Under the pieces are notes generated by a model. It did no database searches and was not told the DNA's origin. It saw only the letters and a list, made by a program, of their open reading frames with translations. A DNA stretch of 6,152 bases from positions 1 through 6,152 of IMG/VR virus record IMGVR_UViG_3300045988_012363. One strand, written 5' to 3'. Made by a program: the position numbers and the translations under genes. This DNA is from a virus. Numbering within the stretch: position 1 is the stretch's first letter; every line of letters starts with the position of its first letter. Positions 2,239 through 6,152 of this stretch are shown piece by piece.

Positions 2239-2418
2239 TCAAAACCATGCTATTTTTTTCTCTTTGTCCAATTGATTGATTCTTTGTCTTGTGAGTTGCC
2301 CCGATCGGCTCTCCCACTCGCCCGTTTTTTTGTTTGTGGTGTATGGTTCTCTCATGAATCCACCTATACTAGGTGTGTATCCGATCACCTTTCCTTTTTC
2401 GTTGTATTTGTATGGCAT
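2239..2418 (-). CDS. Hypothetical protein, 59 aa, first gene after the main promoter
   Basis: The internal ATG at 2418 of track ORF 2239..2472 is preceded by AAGGGGG (complement of 2427-2433) with an 8-nt spacer. The longer track start would lie inside the promoter itself. The product is MPYKYNEKGKVIGYTPSIGGFMREPYTTNKKTGEWESRSGQLTRQRINQLDKEKKIAWF. Confidence 0.55.
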   Translation of the reverse strand: MPYKYNEKGKVIGYTPSIGGFMREPYTTNKKTGEWESRSGQLTRQRINQLDKEKKIAWF

Positions 2419-2443
2419 AATGTTTGCCCCCTTTCTATGATCT

Positions 2444-2486
2444 ATTATATCACAGAATTTTACATTTGTCAAGTTTTTATTTTTTG
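2444..2486 (-). promoter_or_regulatory. Consensus sigma70/sigmaA promoter with extended -10 and an A/T-rich UP-like tract; likely the main phage promoter
   Basis: On the minus strand the sequence reads AAAAAATAAAAAC-TTGACA (2472-2467), a 17-nt spacer ending in TGA, then TATAAT (2449-2444). Both hexamers are perfect, the spacing is optimal and a TGn extension is present. It lies at the boundary between the gene-free region and the first gene of the co-oriented gene string. Confidence 0.75.
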
Positions 2487-2587
2487 CGCAGGTCTTGCTC
2501 CTTTGTTTTGAATGGCGCTTTAGCGCCTTGCCGTGCGTAGCGTATGCGGAGCTCGGCTAATCCATTCCTTGTTAGCGCTGTGCGCGT

Positions 2588-2699
2588 TTTCAACACTTTC
2601 AACACTTTCAACAGGTTTTCCACAAAATGTTGCACAATGATTTTCGGCATTTTGACGAACTTTCAACATTTCAACAATTTTTCAACAAATCTTTCAACA
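2588..2699. repeat. Array of seven exact TTTCAACA octamers (TGTTGAAA on the gene strand), all in the same orientation, in two clusters
   Basis: Exact copies lie at 2588-2595, 2597-2604 and 2606-2613 (period 9). Four more lie at 2661-2668, 2669-2676, 2680-2687 and 2692-2699 (periods 8, 11 and 12). Degenerate copies are TTTTCCACA at 2616-2624, TTTCAACT at 2746-2753 and TTTTCCACT at 2753-2761. Confidence 0.9.
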
Positions 2700-2842
2700 G
2701 TGTTTTTTGCTTTTTATTTACGCTTTAGCGTTAAATTTTAGTACTTTTCAACTTTTCCACTACCTCTACTACTACTCCTACAACAAGTTATATATTATAC
2801 AGCGCTTGTGAGCTTGCGAACAATAGCGCTAGCGCTCTATAG

Positions 2843-2885
2843 CGCGCGTGCGCGCGTGCGCGTTTCGCGCGCGTGCGCACGCGCG
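2843..2885. repeat. GC-rich inverted repeat forming a hairpin of alternating purine-pyrimidine sequence
   Basis: The sequence is cgcgcgtgcgcgcgtgcgcg-ttt-cgcgcgcgtgcgcacgcgcg. The stem has 20 paired positions (2843-2862 with 2866-2885): 18 Watson-Crick pairs and two G-T appositions (2854/2874 and 2857/2871). The loop is 3 nt. Both arms alternate purine and pyrimidine without interruption. Confidence 0.9.
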
Positions 2886-2903
2886 ATAAAGTATATCTAC
2901 TTG

Positions 2904-2921
2904 ATAGACTGAATAGACTGA
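2904..2921. repeat. Perfect tandem duplication of the 9-mer ATAGACTGA
   Basis: The copies are at 2904-2912 and 2913-2921. They overlap the 3' end of the first copy of the decamer TACTTGATAG (2898-2907). Confidence 0.9.
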
Positions 2922-2944
2922 TACATGGTGTCTTTAGACGACAA

Positions 2945-2978
2945 TAGCCCAGTACCTTACTTGATAGGTACTGGGCTA
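2945..2978 (-). terminator. 13-bp perfect hairpin with an 8-nt loop just downstream of the VP4 stop; candidate transcription terminator and/or replication-origin hairpin
   Basis: The stem pairs tagcccagtacct (2945-2957) with aggtactgggcta (2966-2978). The loop is tacttgat (2958-2965). On the gene strand it starts 11 nt after the VP4 stop and is followed by TTGTCGTCT, which is only a weak U-tract. The terminator call is therefore tentative. Confidence 0.45.
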
Positions 2979-2988
2979 GGTGACACCG

Positions 2989-4008
2989 TTAGAGTGTCCC
3001 TTTCTTTTTCATCTGCTTCTTGATCACTCTCTCTTTTGTTTTACACTGTTCTGCAAAGTCTGTGTTTTCGTACTTTAGTCTGTTTTCTGCAATTGCTGCT
3101 GCTTGTCTGTTCTGTTTAATTTTCCACAACCTTTGTGGGTTTTCAGCTTCCATCATTTTTTCATAATAACGTGGAATTTGTGCGTGCTTGCCGTTTGTGC
3201 ATTGGATATATCCTTGCCGCCAGATCTCTGCTTTGTGCTCTTGATAATAGTGATCGCCTAAACCCGGTTTGAGGCTCATACATGCGAATGGTTTTGTTTG
3301 CCCTAGCTCGTAGTATGCGTTTGCTTTTTGACCGTCTATCTCATACATTTTTTTTGTGACGTATCCTGCAACATATCTATATGTTTCTGGCACTGCTTGC
3401 GCTATCTGTATTTGACCCATGCCCCATAGGTCTTCTAGCCATTTACTTGTAAAGTATCCGTTGTGTTGTATCTTGTATAGGTGTTCTAGATCTGTTGGTT
3501 GCCATCCATACAGTATCATGTGATAGTGCGGTCTTGCTGTCTGTTCTCCGTATTCTCCCGCTACAAAATAGCGTAATTTGCCCCCATAAGCCTTCCTGAG
3601 ACGTTTTAAGAATTTTTGAATGTCAGTATATAGCAACGTTTGGACGCTTTCAGGGCGCTTCTCTCCCGGTTTCCAGACGTATTGTACTTTTCGCATGATT
3701 TCGCCTGTGTTTATTATCATGCCCGGTACATGATCATCATCATAGGTTAATGTTATAAACCAAACTTCTTCTTTTGGATAATCTCGTGCTTCTAATTCTA
3801 TTCGTGTTGTCCAATCCTCCCTTTGTCTGATTCTACATCCGATACATTGTCCACATGGTATCAACATGACATTTTTTTTGTACATCAGGTCTTCATATTT
3901 TAGCTGTTTTCCCGCTAACTGAGAAAAGCGGGAGAGTGAGTACACCCTCCCGCTAATGTTTTTGTCGTTAGGGTTGTACAGCCTTATTAATGGCTTGTAA
4001 CAACTCAT
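2989..4008 (-). CDS. VP4: Rolling-circle replication initiation protein (VP4 / phiX174 A-like HUH endonuclease), 339 aa
   Basis: The three microvirus Rep motifs are present. They are FITLTY, the HUH motif PHYHMILYG (H-Y-H at 3520-3528), and the double-tyrosine motif YVAGYVTKK (Y212 at 3373-3375, Y216 at 3361-3363; compare phiX174 A YVAKYVNKK). There is also an N-terminal CGQCIGC cysteine cluster. Its ATG overlaps the VP2 stop as ATGA (4005-4008). Confidence 0.95.
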   Translation of the reverse strand: MSCYKPLIRLYNPNDKNISGRVYSLSRFSQLAGKQLKYEDLMYKKNVMLIPCGQCIGCRIRQREDWTTRIELEARDYPKEEVWFITLTYDDDHVPGMIINTGEIMRKVQYVWKPGEKRPESVQTLLYTDIQKFLKRLRKAYGGKLRYFVAGEYGEQTARPHYHMILYGWQPTDLEHLYKIQHNGYFTSKWLEDLWGMGQIQIAQAVPETYRYVAGYVTKKMYEIDGQKANAYYELGQTKPFACMSLKPGLGDHYYQEHKAEIWRQGYIQCTNGKHAQIPRYYEKMMEAENPQRLWKIKQNRQAAAIAENRLKYENTDFAEQCKTKERVIKKQMKKKGTL

Positions 4009-4841
4009 TTTTTAATATCACCGCCTTTTCCGCCGTGCGTTGCTCCGGCTTTACTTTTGTGTGTTTTGCTTCCCTTTGGTACGTTTTTTTCAATTGCTTT
4101 GCTTGTGTCGTCTCCGATTCCGGTTAGTGCTTTCATCAGTCCGTAGGGTGTCATTTGCGTTGTGCTTAGCATTTGTTGCCAGCTTTGTGCCGCGTTGTAC
4201 CAGTCGCTTTTGCTCCAGCTGCTGCTTTCGTATGCGTTAGGTACAAATCCTCCGCTTCGGCTTACTCCTAGTGCGCTGCTGCTTGCAAGTCCCATACTTG
4301 CCCCACTGATTGTTCCTGCACTTCCTCCCGGTGTGCTTGCGCCGCCGTTTGCGAATGCTAAGATAGGGTTAATCCCTGCTTTTTTCATGTCCTCAACGGC
4401 TCGCTGGTACGCTGTGTTTGACATGTGCTCTTGCCATTCACGGTTTGCTAGTGCTTCTGCGCTGTTGTAGTTCATTGCTACACTGTTTTCGATGTGGTTG
4501 TATACGCCTTGCATGATTGCTTGTAGCGTGTTATAGCCCATCTGTTTTAACATACTCTGGCTGTTGTATTTGCCTTGCATGGCTCCTTCTTGTCCTTGGT
4601 ATGCGTATGCCTGTTTTAGCCAGTCGTTGACTTGCTGCACGTTGGTGCCCGCTTGACTTCCGCTTTCGGAGTGTCCGCCGCCTTGGCTTGTGCTGCCGCC
4701 GCTACTTTGGCTATTGCCTGTCTGTCCCCATCCGCCTAACGATCCGGCGATCTGTTTACCAGCGTTTGCAAATGTTCCAATTGTGTTTGCAATGTTTCCA
4801 GCTACGTTGAGCGCTGTTAAGAATCCTGAAAGTCCTGCCAT
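4005..4841 (-). CDS. VP2: Minor capsid / DNA pilot protein (VP2 / phiX174 H-like), 278 aa
   Basis: It contains the conserved gokushovirus VP2 core ...NREWQEHMSNTAYQRAVEDMKKAGINPILAF.... It has a hydrophobic glycine-rich N-terminus (MAGLSGFLTALNVAGNIANTIG) and two G/S-rich low-complexity stretches. It sits between VP1 and VP4. Confidence 0.9.
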   Translation of the reverse strand: MAGLSGFLTALNVAGNIANTIGTFANAGKQIAGSLGGWGQTGNSQSSGGSTSQGGGHSESGSQAGTNVQQVNDWLKQAYAYQGQEGAMQGKYNSQSMLKQMGYNTLQAIMQGVYNHIENSVAMNYNSAEALANREWQEHMSNTAYQRAVEDMKKAGINPILAFANGGASTPGGSAGTISGASMGLASSSALGVSRSGGFVPNAYESSSWSKSDWYNAAQSWQQMLSTTQMTPYGLMKALTGIGDDTSKAIEKNVPKGSKTHKSKAGATHGGKGGDIKK

Positions 4842-4870
4842 TTTAAAAATAGCCCGGATTTCTCCGGGCT
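4842..4870 (-). terminator. Intrinsic-terminator-like hairpin between VP1 and VP2
   Basis: On the gene strand the sequence is AGCCCGGA-GAAA-TCCGGGCT (4870-4851): an 8-bp stem with 6 GC pairs and a GNRA-type tetraloop. It is followed by ATTTTTAAA (4850-4842) and then the VP2 ATG at 4841. Confidence 0.55.
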
Positions 4871-4880
4871 TCCTCCTTTC

Positions 4881-6152
4881 TTACAGTTTGTACAAGCCCG
4901 GTACACTGTATAGTGGCATCCGTCTTGTGGTTTTGTTTGCTACGCGGATAGCTCCGAAAAATTGCGGCTCATTCTGTATGACGAGTGTTCGCGCAATTTC
5001 GTTTTTGCCTTCTTCCATCCAGCCTTGCGATAGTGTTGGTGCGGTTGTATAATTGTCTGCGTAGTGCCAGAAATCCAACGTGCCTGTTGCGTTGCTTCGC
5101 ATGAGGCCGCTTACCCGGTTTGGTTTCATTCGGTAGTCCGCCCAGGCCTCCTGGTAGCCGAACGTTTCTTCGTCCGTTTCCGTGCCGGTCAACATGATTT
5201 CCTTTTTCTTTACGGGCTGTTCGCCTAGATTTGCAAACTGCGGTACATAGTAGTCCAGTCTGTCTTCTCGGCTCCAGAAACGTTCCAAGCCTTGCTGATA
5301 ACTGCGATTGTGTCGCACACAACAGACACCAATTACAAATCCATGCTCTTCAAAAGATTTGGTAAAAGAGCTTTCGTTTATCGGCGTCACTGACATTGCA
5401 CCAGTTTCGCCCAGCGGTGTATTATCGTTTTCCGCTGTCTGCACGATTTGGTTGATATTGATGTGATATCTGCCGCCGCCCAGGTATTCTGGAATCTGTA
5501 CTGTTTTGTCGCTGATAGTTACATTCCACAGTGCTTGTACCTGTTCACGGTATCGGCTGCCGCCTCTAGCTAGTGCCTCGTAGTACTGCTGTACTGCTAC
5601 GGCTTTTCTCAAGTCGTTGATGGTTGTTGCGGTTACTGTGCTGAGGTCTGCGCCTAGATATGCTGCGTCTATTTCTGTGAGGTCTTTTTCGTAGGCGATT
5701 GATTTACCATTCAGCTGTACTGGAAATTTTCCATTAGCTGATACCATTCCGTTCAGCACGTTTTTTGTTGAGCTTTGTCCGTTTTGACTGAATCCAAGTA
5801 CGTTTAGATTTACTTCGTTTTTATTTTCCGCAGCTCCGCTGTATGCCTTTACCTCTGCGTTTCCTGTCATTGGAATTGTCACTGCCGGCCCGCGCTGAGG
5901 ATACGGTAAGCAGCTGGTAAAATAGTCATGGAATTTGTTTACTGGTAAGCACCTTCCGCCTTTATATGCTATTTTCAGCACTTGATCGATGCTTTCGGTG
6001 CTTGAGTCTTCGTATGTTACGTCAGCATCATCCGTTTTAATTACTGCTGCATTATCTACGTTTTCATCCCTAAAAAATTCGTTCCAGATTTTTACATACG
6101 CTCTAATAGGCAGCGCGTTGACTTCGAATTTTCCTTTTACTTTTGTCGGCAC
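4881..6152 (-). CDS. VP1: Major capsid protein (VP1 / F-like), C-terminal part. Bases 6054-6152 duplicate bases 1-99.
   Basis: The 423-aa track ORF contains ALPIRAYVKIWNEFFRDENV, GGSRYREQVQALWNV, IPEYLGGG and FVIGVCCVRH, and ends in FFGAIRVANKTTRRMPLYSVPGL. These are all typical microvirus capsid blocks. The M at 6152 in the track is an internal GTG (Val), not the start. The full gene runs 501..1 plus 6053..4881, which is 1674 nt and 557 aa. Confidence 0.93.
   Translation of the reverse strand: MPTKVKGKFEVNALPIRAYVKIWNEFFRDENVDNAAVIKTDDADVTYEDSSTESIDQVLKIAYKGGRCLPVNKFHDYFTSCLPYPQRGPAVTIPMTGNAEVKAYSGAAENKNEVNLNVLGFSQNGQSSTKNVLNGMVSANGKFPVQLNGKSIAYEKDLTEIDAAYLGADLSTVTATTINDLRKAVAVQQYYEALARGGSRYREQVQALWNVTISDKTVQIPEYLGGGRYHININQIVQTAENDNTPLGETGAMSVTPINESSFTKSFEEHGFVIGVCCVRHNRSYQQGLERFWSREDRLDYYVPQFANLGEQPVKKKEIMLTGTETDEETFGYQEAWADYRMKPNRVSGLMRSNATGTLDFWHYADNYTTAPTLSQGWMEEGKNEIARTLVIQNEPQFFGAIRVANKTTRRMPLYSVPGLYKL
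6054..6152. repeat. 99-nt exact direct terminal repeat (identical to 1-99), the overlap signature of a circular contig
   Basis: A base-by-base comparison shows 1-99 and 6054-6152 are identical. The repeat lies inside the capsid reading frame and preserves the frame across the junction. Confidence 0.95.

Follow-up and report, generated by a model that had tools for sequence, protein, structure and literature searches.

What does a small bacteriophage keep in a long stretch of its genome that encodes no protein? The question is raised by the IMG/VR record IMGVR_UViG_3300045988_012363, a gokushovirus genome analysed here as a stretch of 6,152 nt (the window, in which all positions are counted). 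A sequence-only reading of the window had noticed that positions 2473-2988 contain no credible open reading frame (ORF) and several systems of repeats and palindromes, and suspected that they hold the cis elements of replication, packaging and transcription, an interpretation which is partly supported by the present analysis. The best reading of the region is that it is a replication-control region of the phage, with two different putative origins. The first is a compact module, designated M, which is probably a copy or a mimic of the host chromosomal origin (oriC) that recruits the host initiator DnaA on the double-stranded replicative form (RF) of the phage genome. The second, beside it, is a hairpin most likely operating in rolling-circle replication. 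Our literature search returned no paper linking Microviridae with DnaA boxes, and we found no earlier description in this family of a host-origin look-alike paired with a rolling-circle hairpin.

Module M (positions 2588-2800, plus strand, about 215 bp) combines DnaA-box-like repeats, a 4-bp spacer, DnaA-trios and an AT-rich end. The box part (2588-2761, plus strand) comprises ten 8-mers TTTC[A/C]AC[A/T] (TTTCAACA-type), all in the same orientation and grouped in clusters of four, four and two; eight of them read TTTC[A/C]ACA. The canonical DnaA box is TTATCCACA, and two of the ten 8-mers are exact relaxed DnaA boxes, namely TTTTCCACA (2616-2624) and TTTTCCACT (2753-2761), the latter being a one-mismatch match to TTWTNCACA that adjoins TTTCAACT. 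The G variant of the repeat, TTTTCCACA, is thus an exact relaxed box, from which the T variant, TTTTCAACA, differs by a single mismatch. The window contains nine TGTKGAAA sites versus 0.54 expected, a number that none of 200 shuffled sequences reached, and eight of these sites lie within 2588-2699 on one strand. At one end of M, the plus strand reads, in order, TTTTCAAC-TTTTCCACT, the spacer ACCT, the triplets CTA CTA CTA CTC CTA CAA CAA and GTTATATATTATAC. In this unwinding core (2762-2786, plus strand), the strand complementary to 2766-2780 reads GAT GAT GAT GAG GAT, i.e., repeats of the 3'-GAT-5' DnaA-trio motif, and the AT-rich end that follows (2787-2800, plus strand), with two G/C in 14 positions, is a candidate DNA-unwinding element (DUE).

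Is this layout peculiar to one genome? We assembled a set of 125 distinct modules, from relatives of the window's Rep protein (VP4) and from contigs matching a pattern derived from the best-conserved part of M; the pattern retrieved many more microvirus contigs, the Rep of which is 37-57% identical to that of the window. Over the 125 modules, the position weight matrix of the boxes is T-G-T-[T.90/G.10]-G-A-A-[A.91] on the gene strand (TTTC[A/C]ACA on the plus strand), with 9.2 box sites per module, 1149 of them on the same strand versus 18 on the opposite strand. At their fourth position, T accounts for 90% and G for 10%, and C is absent from all 1149 sites, which excludes Spo0A boxes (TGTCGAA). 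The spacer (ACCT in the window versus GCCC in the clade consensus) is 4 bp long in 98 of the 125 modules, and the 20 nt past the trio run are on average 75% A+T; the AT-rich end is longer, about 27 nt, in the genome MG945136. According to the published rule, the basal unwinding system (BUS) of bacterial origins begins with one or several DnaA boxes, which a short gap of G/C separates from a run of three or more DnaA-trios and then the DUE, with a box-trio spacer of at most 16 bp (PMC8287927), and the trio element of Clostridioides difficile was published as CACCTACTACTATTACTACTATGA (PMC7561715). We applied this rule as a box with at most two mismatches to the species consensus, a spacer of 0-16 bp and at least three consecutive NAN trios, 3'-GAT-5' being preferred. 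It holds for 123 of the 125 modules, which have three to six NAN trios each, mostly exact, and the 70 modules gathered through Rep alone, i.e., without the trio pattern, have the same core with almost invariant trios.

Where else does such a layout occur? When 185,579 species genomes were searched for sites with three copies of TGTTGAAA close together, the matches included many genomes of Oscillospiraceae, Ruminococcus and Ruminococcaceae. Using Pfam and tblastn, we located the box array between dnaA and dnaN in eight genomes, and beside dnaA in a ninth one, all from Ruminococcus, Oscillospiraceae or Clostridia. The dnaA-dnaN spacer is the classical position of oriC in Firmicutes. The four host-type loci that were examined in full have 14-20 boxes each, and five of the nine host genomes have a core comprising, in that order, an AT-rich segment, (TAG)n, a spacer (GGGG, GGGC and similar) and TGTTGAAAC TGTTGAAAA. 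Three phage modules differ from the host cores by few bases over the trio-spacer-box stretch. Furthermore, a hidden Markov model (HMM) of the phage module aligns with host origins over about 180 nt (E = 2e-16, 2e-12 and 8e-11), in a collinear manner: the trios, the box pair and two successive box clusters, each set off from the next by a spacer, follow each other in the same order in phage and host. From the presence of the same box arrays at the dnaA-dnaN locus of nine genomes, and of the same trio-spacer-box layout in five of them, we propose that M copies or mimics the host origin. The sequence-only reading had not foreseen that the largest conserved block, that of the T-rich repeats, resembles a host chromosomal origin, and not a phage-specific signal for Rep or packaging. 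As a separate observation, the phage-module profile also matches box arrays in genomes from two unrelated phyla, namely Thermotogota (L248, L313) and Anaerolineae (L205, L258), with E-values of about 1e-10.

All nine DnaA proteins of the host-type genomes (L209, L215, L219, L231, L254, L257, L265, L282 and L303) have a serine instead of a threonine in the DNA-reading helix, which reads DHST (NYST in L219), and seven of the nine read RDHSTIVY versus RDHTTVIH in Bacillus subtilis. We take the substituted positions to be those of the base-contacting T435 and H439 in the structure of the Escherichia coli DnaA-DNA complex. The occurrence of the serine in all nine helices would fit with a shifted box specificity. 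Together, these data suggest that Oscillospiraceae and Ruminococcus have a family-specific DnaA-box preference, TTTTCAACA.

If M is a binding site, is its partner a phage or a host protein? The sequences of the 125 modules are at least 75% identical, whereas the corresponding Rep proteins are 37-96% identical to that of the window, so that M is better conserved than the proteins, and this maintenance across divergent Rep argues for a host factor rather than a Rep-specific partner. It bears directly on the possibility that the repeats of M are iterons bound by a phage protein (VP4, VP5 or the product of a small ORF), comparable to those of rolling-circle plasmids and geminiviruses, and that M resembles oriC by coincidence. 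Direct repeats near a Rep gene and a nick hairpin are indeed typical of Rep-binding loci, and VP5 is annotated as DNA-binding. However, M keeps at least 75% identity in genomes whose Rep is only 37-40% identical to that of the window, it occurs in both orientations and at 26-268 nt from the hairpin, and the same motif, spacer and trio layout stands at the dnaA-dnaN locus of bacteria, with no microvirus genes in the loci examined. We therefore regard iterons as a very improbable explanation of M.

The orientation of M is informative in its own right. In six of the 80 IMG/VR relatives with a Rep at least 90% identical to that of the window, a block of about 212 bp (2586-2797 in the window) is inverted, both flanks being unflipped; this block, of constant length and sharp boundaries, is module M itself. 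In the complete set, 105 modules are in the forward and 20 in the reverse orientation. By sequence, the reverse alleles cluster separately and are about 78% identical to the forward ones, and the terminal inverted repeats at the boundaries of M are no longer than 5-6 nt. An active invertible switch (inverton) was therefore rejected, and the separate clustering of the reverse alleles indicates that the orientation of M is a stable lineage trait. Since M is found in both orientations and is largely unpaired in the single-stranded DNA (ssDNA) folds of both strands, it fits with a function exerted at the level of double-stranded DNA (dsDNA).

Alternatively, M might be only a DnaA sink or sensor: the many RF copies, with about ten boxes each, would titrate the initiator, to block re-initiation of the host chromosome or to couple phage transcription to the DnaA level, without any unwinding or firing on the phage genome. 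The dense array of about nine boxes per module and its location about 115 nt upstream of the main promoter are in line with such a role, and titrating clusters of DnaA boxes exist in bacteria (datA, the B. subtilis clusters). On the other hand, the trios, the 4-bp spacer and the AT-rich end would be superfluous for titration, yet the trio core is almost invariant in the Rep-retrieved modules; the AT-rich end lies beside the hairpin in 109 of the 125 genomes; and M is neither at a fixed distance from the promoter nor in a fixed orientation to it. Thus, a mere sink or sensor appears unlikely, though less so than iterons.

Could the resemblance to a host locus instead reflect lysogeny, M being a segment of homology for integration at or near the host oriC, or a dif/att-type site? 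Some gokushoviruses carry dif-like motifs in their non-coding regions and integrate through XerCD (PMC7062461), and M does resemble a host locus. Nevertheless, 120 box-array loci of bacteria were inspected and neither VP1 nor VP4 was found in any of them, and most of the 80 metagenome contigs encoding close Rep relatives are free units, about 5.5-6.1 kb in size. In the few long contigs, the junction with foreign DNA lies within VP1, VP2 or VP3, not in the non-coding region, so that they look like assembly chimeras: L023 carries the portal and terminase of a tailed phage, L469 has bacterial LarC/CbiMQO genes fused to the interior of VP3, the junctions of L418 and L420 fall within VP1 and VP2, and L479 is a tandem dimer of two different microviruses. 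In addition, the similarity to the host oriC outside the motifs is too low for efficient homologous recombination, and no dif-like 28-mer was evident by eye, no formal search being made. A prophage or integration element was accordingly rejected, and we consider a role of M in lysogeny to be highly unlikely. A search for plasmid relatives of M in PLSDB also gave no match.

Beside module M, is there a site for rolling-circle replication, as the sequence-only reading had supposed in suspecting a plus-strand origin nicked by VP4? The origin-like hairpin element (2945-2988, plus strand), which adjoins the Rep gene, has a perfect 13-bp stem (2945-2957/2966-2978) and an 8-nt loop, TACTTGAT. The loop reads CTATCAAGTAA on the gene strand and TTACTTGATAG on the plus strand, with GTGTCAC ahead of it on the gene strand; the oligonucleotide sequences of the two hairpin-loop strands are 5'-CCTTACTTGATAGG and 5'-CCTATCAAGTAAGG. 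Across the loop and the first stem base lies ACTTGATA (2959-2966, plus strand), which we take to be the core of the phiX174 origin (CAACTTG/ATA, the slash marking the nick), as well as that nicked in plasmids of the pC194 family. Consistently with a nicking function, the translated Rep has HYHMILY as its HUH motif and YVAGYVTKK as its two-tyrosine (Y-x-x-x-Y) motif.

The comparison of genomes supports this assignment. The stems are wholly different between clades (tagcccagtacc, gtgggcctaatcc, cactcagccaagta, ccggcacaag), with compensatory changes within clades, and the loop is conserved as (T)ATCAAG(T/A)A or GACAAG(G/T)AA, the variant following the Rep clade. The hairpin always adjoins the Rep gene; in the clade with a Rep about 38% identical to that of the window (the Rep~38% clade), it lies upstream of Rep, still beside the AT-rich end of M. 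Homologous hairpins with the loop (T)ACTTGAT(GT) occur in Chp2 (L317, about 2903-2940), in SpV4 (L318, about 511-543), in eight of 12 other GenBank gokushoviruses and in 52 of the 74 IMG/VR relatives of Chp2. All of these carry the hairpin on the gene strand; the antisense location is found only in the clades of the window and in the Apis-associated L330. We propose that the hairpin is most likely the conserved rolling-circle origin of gokushoviruses, with CTTG/ATA as candidate VP4 nick site. It resembles the origins of phiX174 gene A and of pC194-pUB110 by its ACTTGATA core, by its HUH Rep with two tyrosines and by the adjacency of the nick element to the rep gene. It differs from the phiX174 origin, which has no hairpin, in that a long perfect hairpin carries the motif in its loop, in an intergenic position and on the antisense strand.

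Given its place right after the stop codon of Rep, the hairpin might be simply the transcription terminator of a VP1-VP2-VP4 operon, in which case the hairpin, the neighbouring GC-rich tract and the upstream element B (both described below) would have no role in replication. A T-run follows the hairpin in several relatives (L004, L012, L094 and L101). By contrast, the hairpin of the window has no T-run (its tail is ATTGTCGTCT), and a terminator scan did not list 2945-2978 on the minus strand. Moreover, the loop has been conserved while the stems were replaced, the hairpin of the Rep~38% clade belongs to the leader that precedes Rep, and the homologous CTTGAT-loop hairpins of the Chp2-like phages are also upstream of Rep. 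A terminator-only function is quite improbable in our view.

Several points weigh against the proposal that M is an oriC-like element operating beside a rolling-circle origin. First, the nick-like motif of the hairpin is antisense to the genes, contrary to the plus-sense picture implicit in the sequence-only reading, so that a simple analogy with phiX174 needs an antisense packaged strand. Second, a standard scan for DnaA boxes of the E. coli type found 16 in the genome versus 15 expected, i.e., no enrichment, and is uninformative. Third, that TTTTCAACA is the DnaA box of the bacteria in question is deduced from the position and number of its copies only. Fourth, the nhmmer E-values relate to loci that had been pre-selected for three boxes, and the BUS count is biased by the part of the module set that was gathered with a trio-containing pattern. 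Fifth, the AT-rich end is short in the window, about 14 nt. Sixth, the 15 other gokushoviruses that were examined lack M, among them the isolates Chp2, SpV4 and phiMH2K, which indicates that the family as a whole does not require M and that it is an accessory element in certain gut lineages. Concerning the packaged strand, the T/A skew at third codon positions was also considered as an indicator; it looked promising on 15 genomes and was then rejected, as A>T holds in 11 of the 52 genomes that carry the hairpin on the gene strand, and host genes themselves have A3 >= T3 and C3 > G3.

Taking these points together with the evidence above, we still hold it probable that M acts as an oriC-like element, in the following way. 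On the double-stranded RF, host DnaA would bind to the boxes of M, extend from them over the trios as an oligomer, and thereby unwind the module at its AT-rich end. The opened module would give access to the host DnaA-dependent helicase-loading and priming machinery, to the benefit of either RF replication or lagging-strand priming. VP4 would nick the CTTG/ATA loop of the hairpin for rolling-circle replication. The hairpin stands on the AT-rich side of M in 109 of the 125 genomes (median distance 116 nt) and on the box side in six only, the distance being about 145 nt in the window and 26-268 nt among genomes. From this location of the hairpin on the unwinding side, DnaA-driven opening may possibly help to expose the adjacent nick site to VP4. 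Element B and the promoter P1 would be the remaining parts of the control region.

A more elaborate version, which we put forward as a tentative and rather doubtful possibility, is that two modes of replication are run from the same region: M would be a theta origin fired by DnaA, through which the RF would be replicated by the initiation machinery of the host and be maintained as an episome in dividing Oscillospiraceae cells, in a carrier state without integration, and the hairpin would be an inverted rolling-circle origin, its CTTG/ATA nick site being antisense to the genes. Joined to it, and just as doubtful, is the idea that the clade packages negative-sense DNA, unlike every characterised member of the Microviridae. 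As a side observation on the RF, the contigs L432 and L471, apparently from human-gut metagenomes, have an un-normalised coverage of 450-950x; if they stem from standard dsDNA libraries, this hints at an abundant RF.

How does M compare with known systems? Similarly to the BUS of bacterial oriC (the B. subtilis incC, with DnaA-boxes 6/7, trios and DUE, and the C. difficile oriC2), M has the same order of parts, a G/C spacer of about 4 bp, at least three 3'-GAT-5' trios and extra clusters of same-orientation boxes upstream. Unlike a bacterial BUS, it lies on the 6-kb genome of an ssDNA phage, between Rep and the first small gene, and not beside dnaA or dnaN. Furthermore, the host origins have no GC-rich alternating tract, whereas most phage genomes have one beside M, in addition to the rolling-circle hairpin. 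Hence, M would work like, or derive from, an oriC, but it is not a chromosomal origin. With the origins of P1 (oriR), pSC101, F and RK2, it has in common that a mobile replicon would use the host DnaA via boxes in its own origin. Those replicons have one to few boxes that assist a plasmid initiator acting on iterons, whereas M has about ten boxes, trios and a DUE, amounting to an entire unwinding unit of the chromosomal type, and there is no gene for a plasmid-type initiator. In the 'A site', a hairpin carrying a DnaA box assembles the ABC primosome on ssDNA; since the boxes of M are not in a hairpin stem, this mechanism is not applicable here.

If our proposal is true, it has the following implications. 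A minimal ssDNA phage would carry a chromosome-type origin and tap DnaA-dependent helicase loading; DnaA-dependent origins of the oriC type are a known kind, and the novelty is the placement of one in an ssDNA rolling-circle phage. This would explain replication, and perhaps persistence, in Firmicutes, where the phiX174 route through PriA and the Rep helicase may not apply. Widespread uncultured microviruses of the human and animal gut would be assigned to Ruminococcus/Oscillospiraceae hosts through a cis element, and not through CRISPR spacers or prophages. A major family of gut bacteria would have a divergent DnaA box, TTTTCAACA, with matching changes in the DnaA helix. Finally, the long-open location of gokushovirus origins would become directly testable, as the CTTGAT-loop hairpin is conserved across most of the sampled subfamily.

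What else does the region hold? Its left edge carries the main promoter P1 (2472..2444, minus strand), made of TTGACA, a 17-nt spacing and an extended -10 TGnTATAAT, with a scan score of 12/12 for sigma-70; TTGACA...TATAAT promoters occur at the equivalent place in relatives. Thus, the proposal that the region holds cis elements stood as regards transcription, through this consensus promoter, and as regards replication, through the conserved hairpin with a phiX174-like nick motif beside the Rep gene; no evidence was obtained for packaging cues. As another observation on promoters, a second near-consensus one (TTGACA-16-TAAAAT with TG, 11/12) is present at 2024-2051 on the minus strand, within the 55-nt gap that precedes the gene of the M15 peptidase.

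Element B (2505-2587, minus strand), which is located immediately upstream of P1 in all cases, is structured and non-coding. It forms hairpins at 2576-2586, 2530-2557 (GCCG-x-NN...NN-x-CGGC) and 2514-2527 (GGCGC-TTTA-GCGCC), and four of the 17 pairs of its fold display compensatory changes (e.g., GC:12/AU:11 and UA:14/CG:9). Its orientation relative to the genes is constant in all clades, and in the Rep~38% clade it comes straight after the Rep stop codon. Element B is a candidate signal operating at the single-strand level, such as a complementary-strand origin; the priming signal for the complementary strand that had been expected in the region has in element B only a candidate. Similarly to the ssoA single-strand origins of rolling-circle plasmids, it is strand-specific, structured, non-coding and close to a rolling-circle origin, and in the window the ssoA CS-6 hexamer TAGCGT is found in the loop of the central hairpin (2530-2557, plus strand). 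In contrast to ssoA, element B is only about 83 nt long, and no RSB-like element was identified in it; TAGCGT is kept in only some of the 23 aligned B variants, as read by eye and not tabulated. L004 and L060 have an insertion of about 26 nt within element B, forming an extra perfect hairpin (GCCATTTTCGGGAGTTCCCGAAAATGG), the remainder of B being unchanged.

On the other side of M, the GC-rich tract (2840-2886) consists of two alternating purine/pyrimidine runs of about 20 nt each (CG/CA type) around AAA/TTT. It folds in ssDNA into a very stable imperfect hairpin, and could adopt a Z-DNA or cruciform structure in supercoiled dsDNA. Such a tract stands between the DUE side of M and the hairpin in 93 of the 125 genomes; its lack in L004 and in the Rep~38% clade indicates that it is dispensable. 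The small repeats farther on comprise two plus-strand copies of TACTTGATAG (2898-2907 and 2958-2967), the second corresponding to the loop of the 13-bp hairpin and its first two stem bases; a tandem of two ATAGACTGA (2904-2921, plus strand), which overlaps the first; and, in two copies in the region, a GCGCTTTAGCG-like repeat. The block 2898-2921 is poorly conserved and is not kept in L012 and L004. A second small hairpin (2982-2998), formed by GGTGACAC (2979-2986, after the stem of the first one), spans the stop codon of Rep. Every system of repeats or palindromes that had been noticed in the region is present, and these features exceed chance.

Does the region encode anything after all? The absence of a credible ORF from 2473-2988 was confirmed; the true left edge of the region is however 2419, and not 2473. 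The ORF listed at 2239-2472 (minus strand, 77 amino acids) has as its TTG 'start' the -35 hexamer of P1, and the true start of this first small gene is the ATG at 2418, which is preceded by the Shine-Dalgarno sequence AGGGGG and gives a 59-amino-acid product. The non-coding region therefore spans 2419-2988, i.e., 570 nt or 9.4% of the genome. As had been noticed, its local composition swings widely, the GC content ranging from 0.26 to 0.61. Its ssDNA folds are more stable than those of shuffled controls on both strands (z-scores of -6.8 for the plus and -4.7 for the minus strand), and alignment showed that the region is conserved in related microviruses, namely in 59 phage records and in the 80 IMG/VR relatives mentioned above. 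Of the gene-strand ORFs that the region contains, the longest (2477-2650, 57 amino acids) has variabilities of 3.97, 3.80 and 3.02 at the three codon positions, without any excess at the third one. In MG945136, hand translation puts the same conserved nucleotides into another frame; moreover, the ORF is broken up where M is inverted, and it has no match in Pfam or PHROG. A hidden protein gene was thus excluded, the frame not being conserved in relatives. A tRNA scan found none, and a known RNA family was rejected as well: the single Rfam match in the genome, Termite-leu, is at chance level and outside the region, inside the Rep gene (3871-3958, minus strand; 21 bits versus a gathering score of 51, E = 0.48).

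The genome itself is a gokushovirus circle of 6053 nt, as the window has a terminal redundancy of 99 nt (1-99 = 6054-6152). According to the ORF list and to the Pfam and PHROG matches, all recognisable genes are on the minus strand: VP4/Rep (2989-4008; PF23343, E = 1.6e-17; phrog_942), the VP2 pilot protein (4005-4841), VP1 (spanning the window ends), the VP3 scaffold protein (504-1016), the DNA-binding-annotated VP5 (889-1128) and the M15 peptidase (1608-2000). Several further small ORFs have no family match. The closest GenBank records are gut gokushoviruses of human and pig, KX513868 and MG945514 being 89% identical over 96% of the genome. A terminator-like hairpin (4851-4870, minus strand; AGCCCGGAGAAATCCGGGCT followed by ATTTTT) lies between VP1 and VP2, and may attenuate transcription past the capsid gene. 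The coding strand is extremely A-rich and T-poor (A 38%, T 18%; A.38-.45 and T.10-.17 at third codon positions), a skew that exceeds that of the dnaA and dnaN genes of the host.

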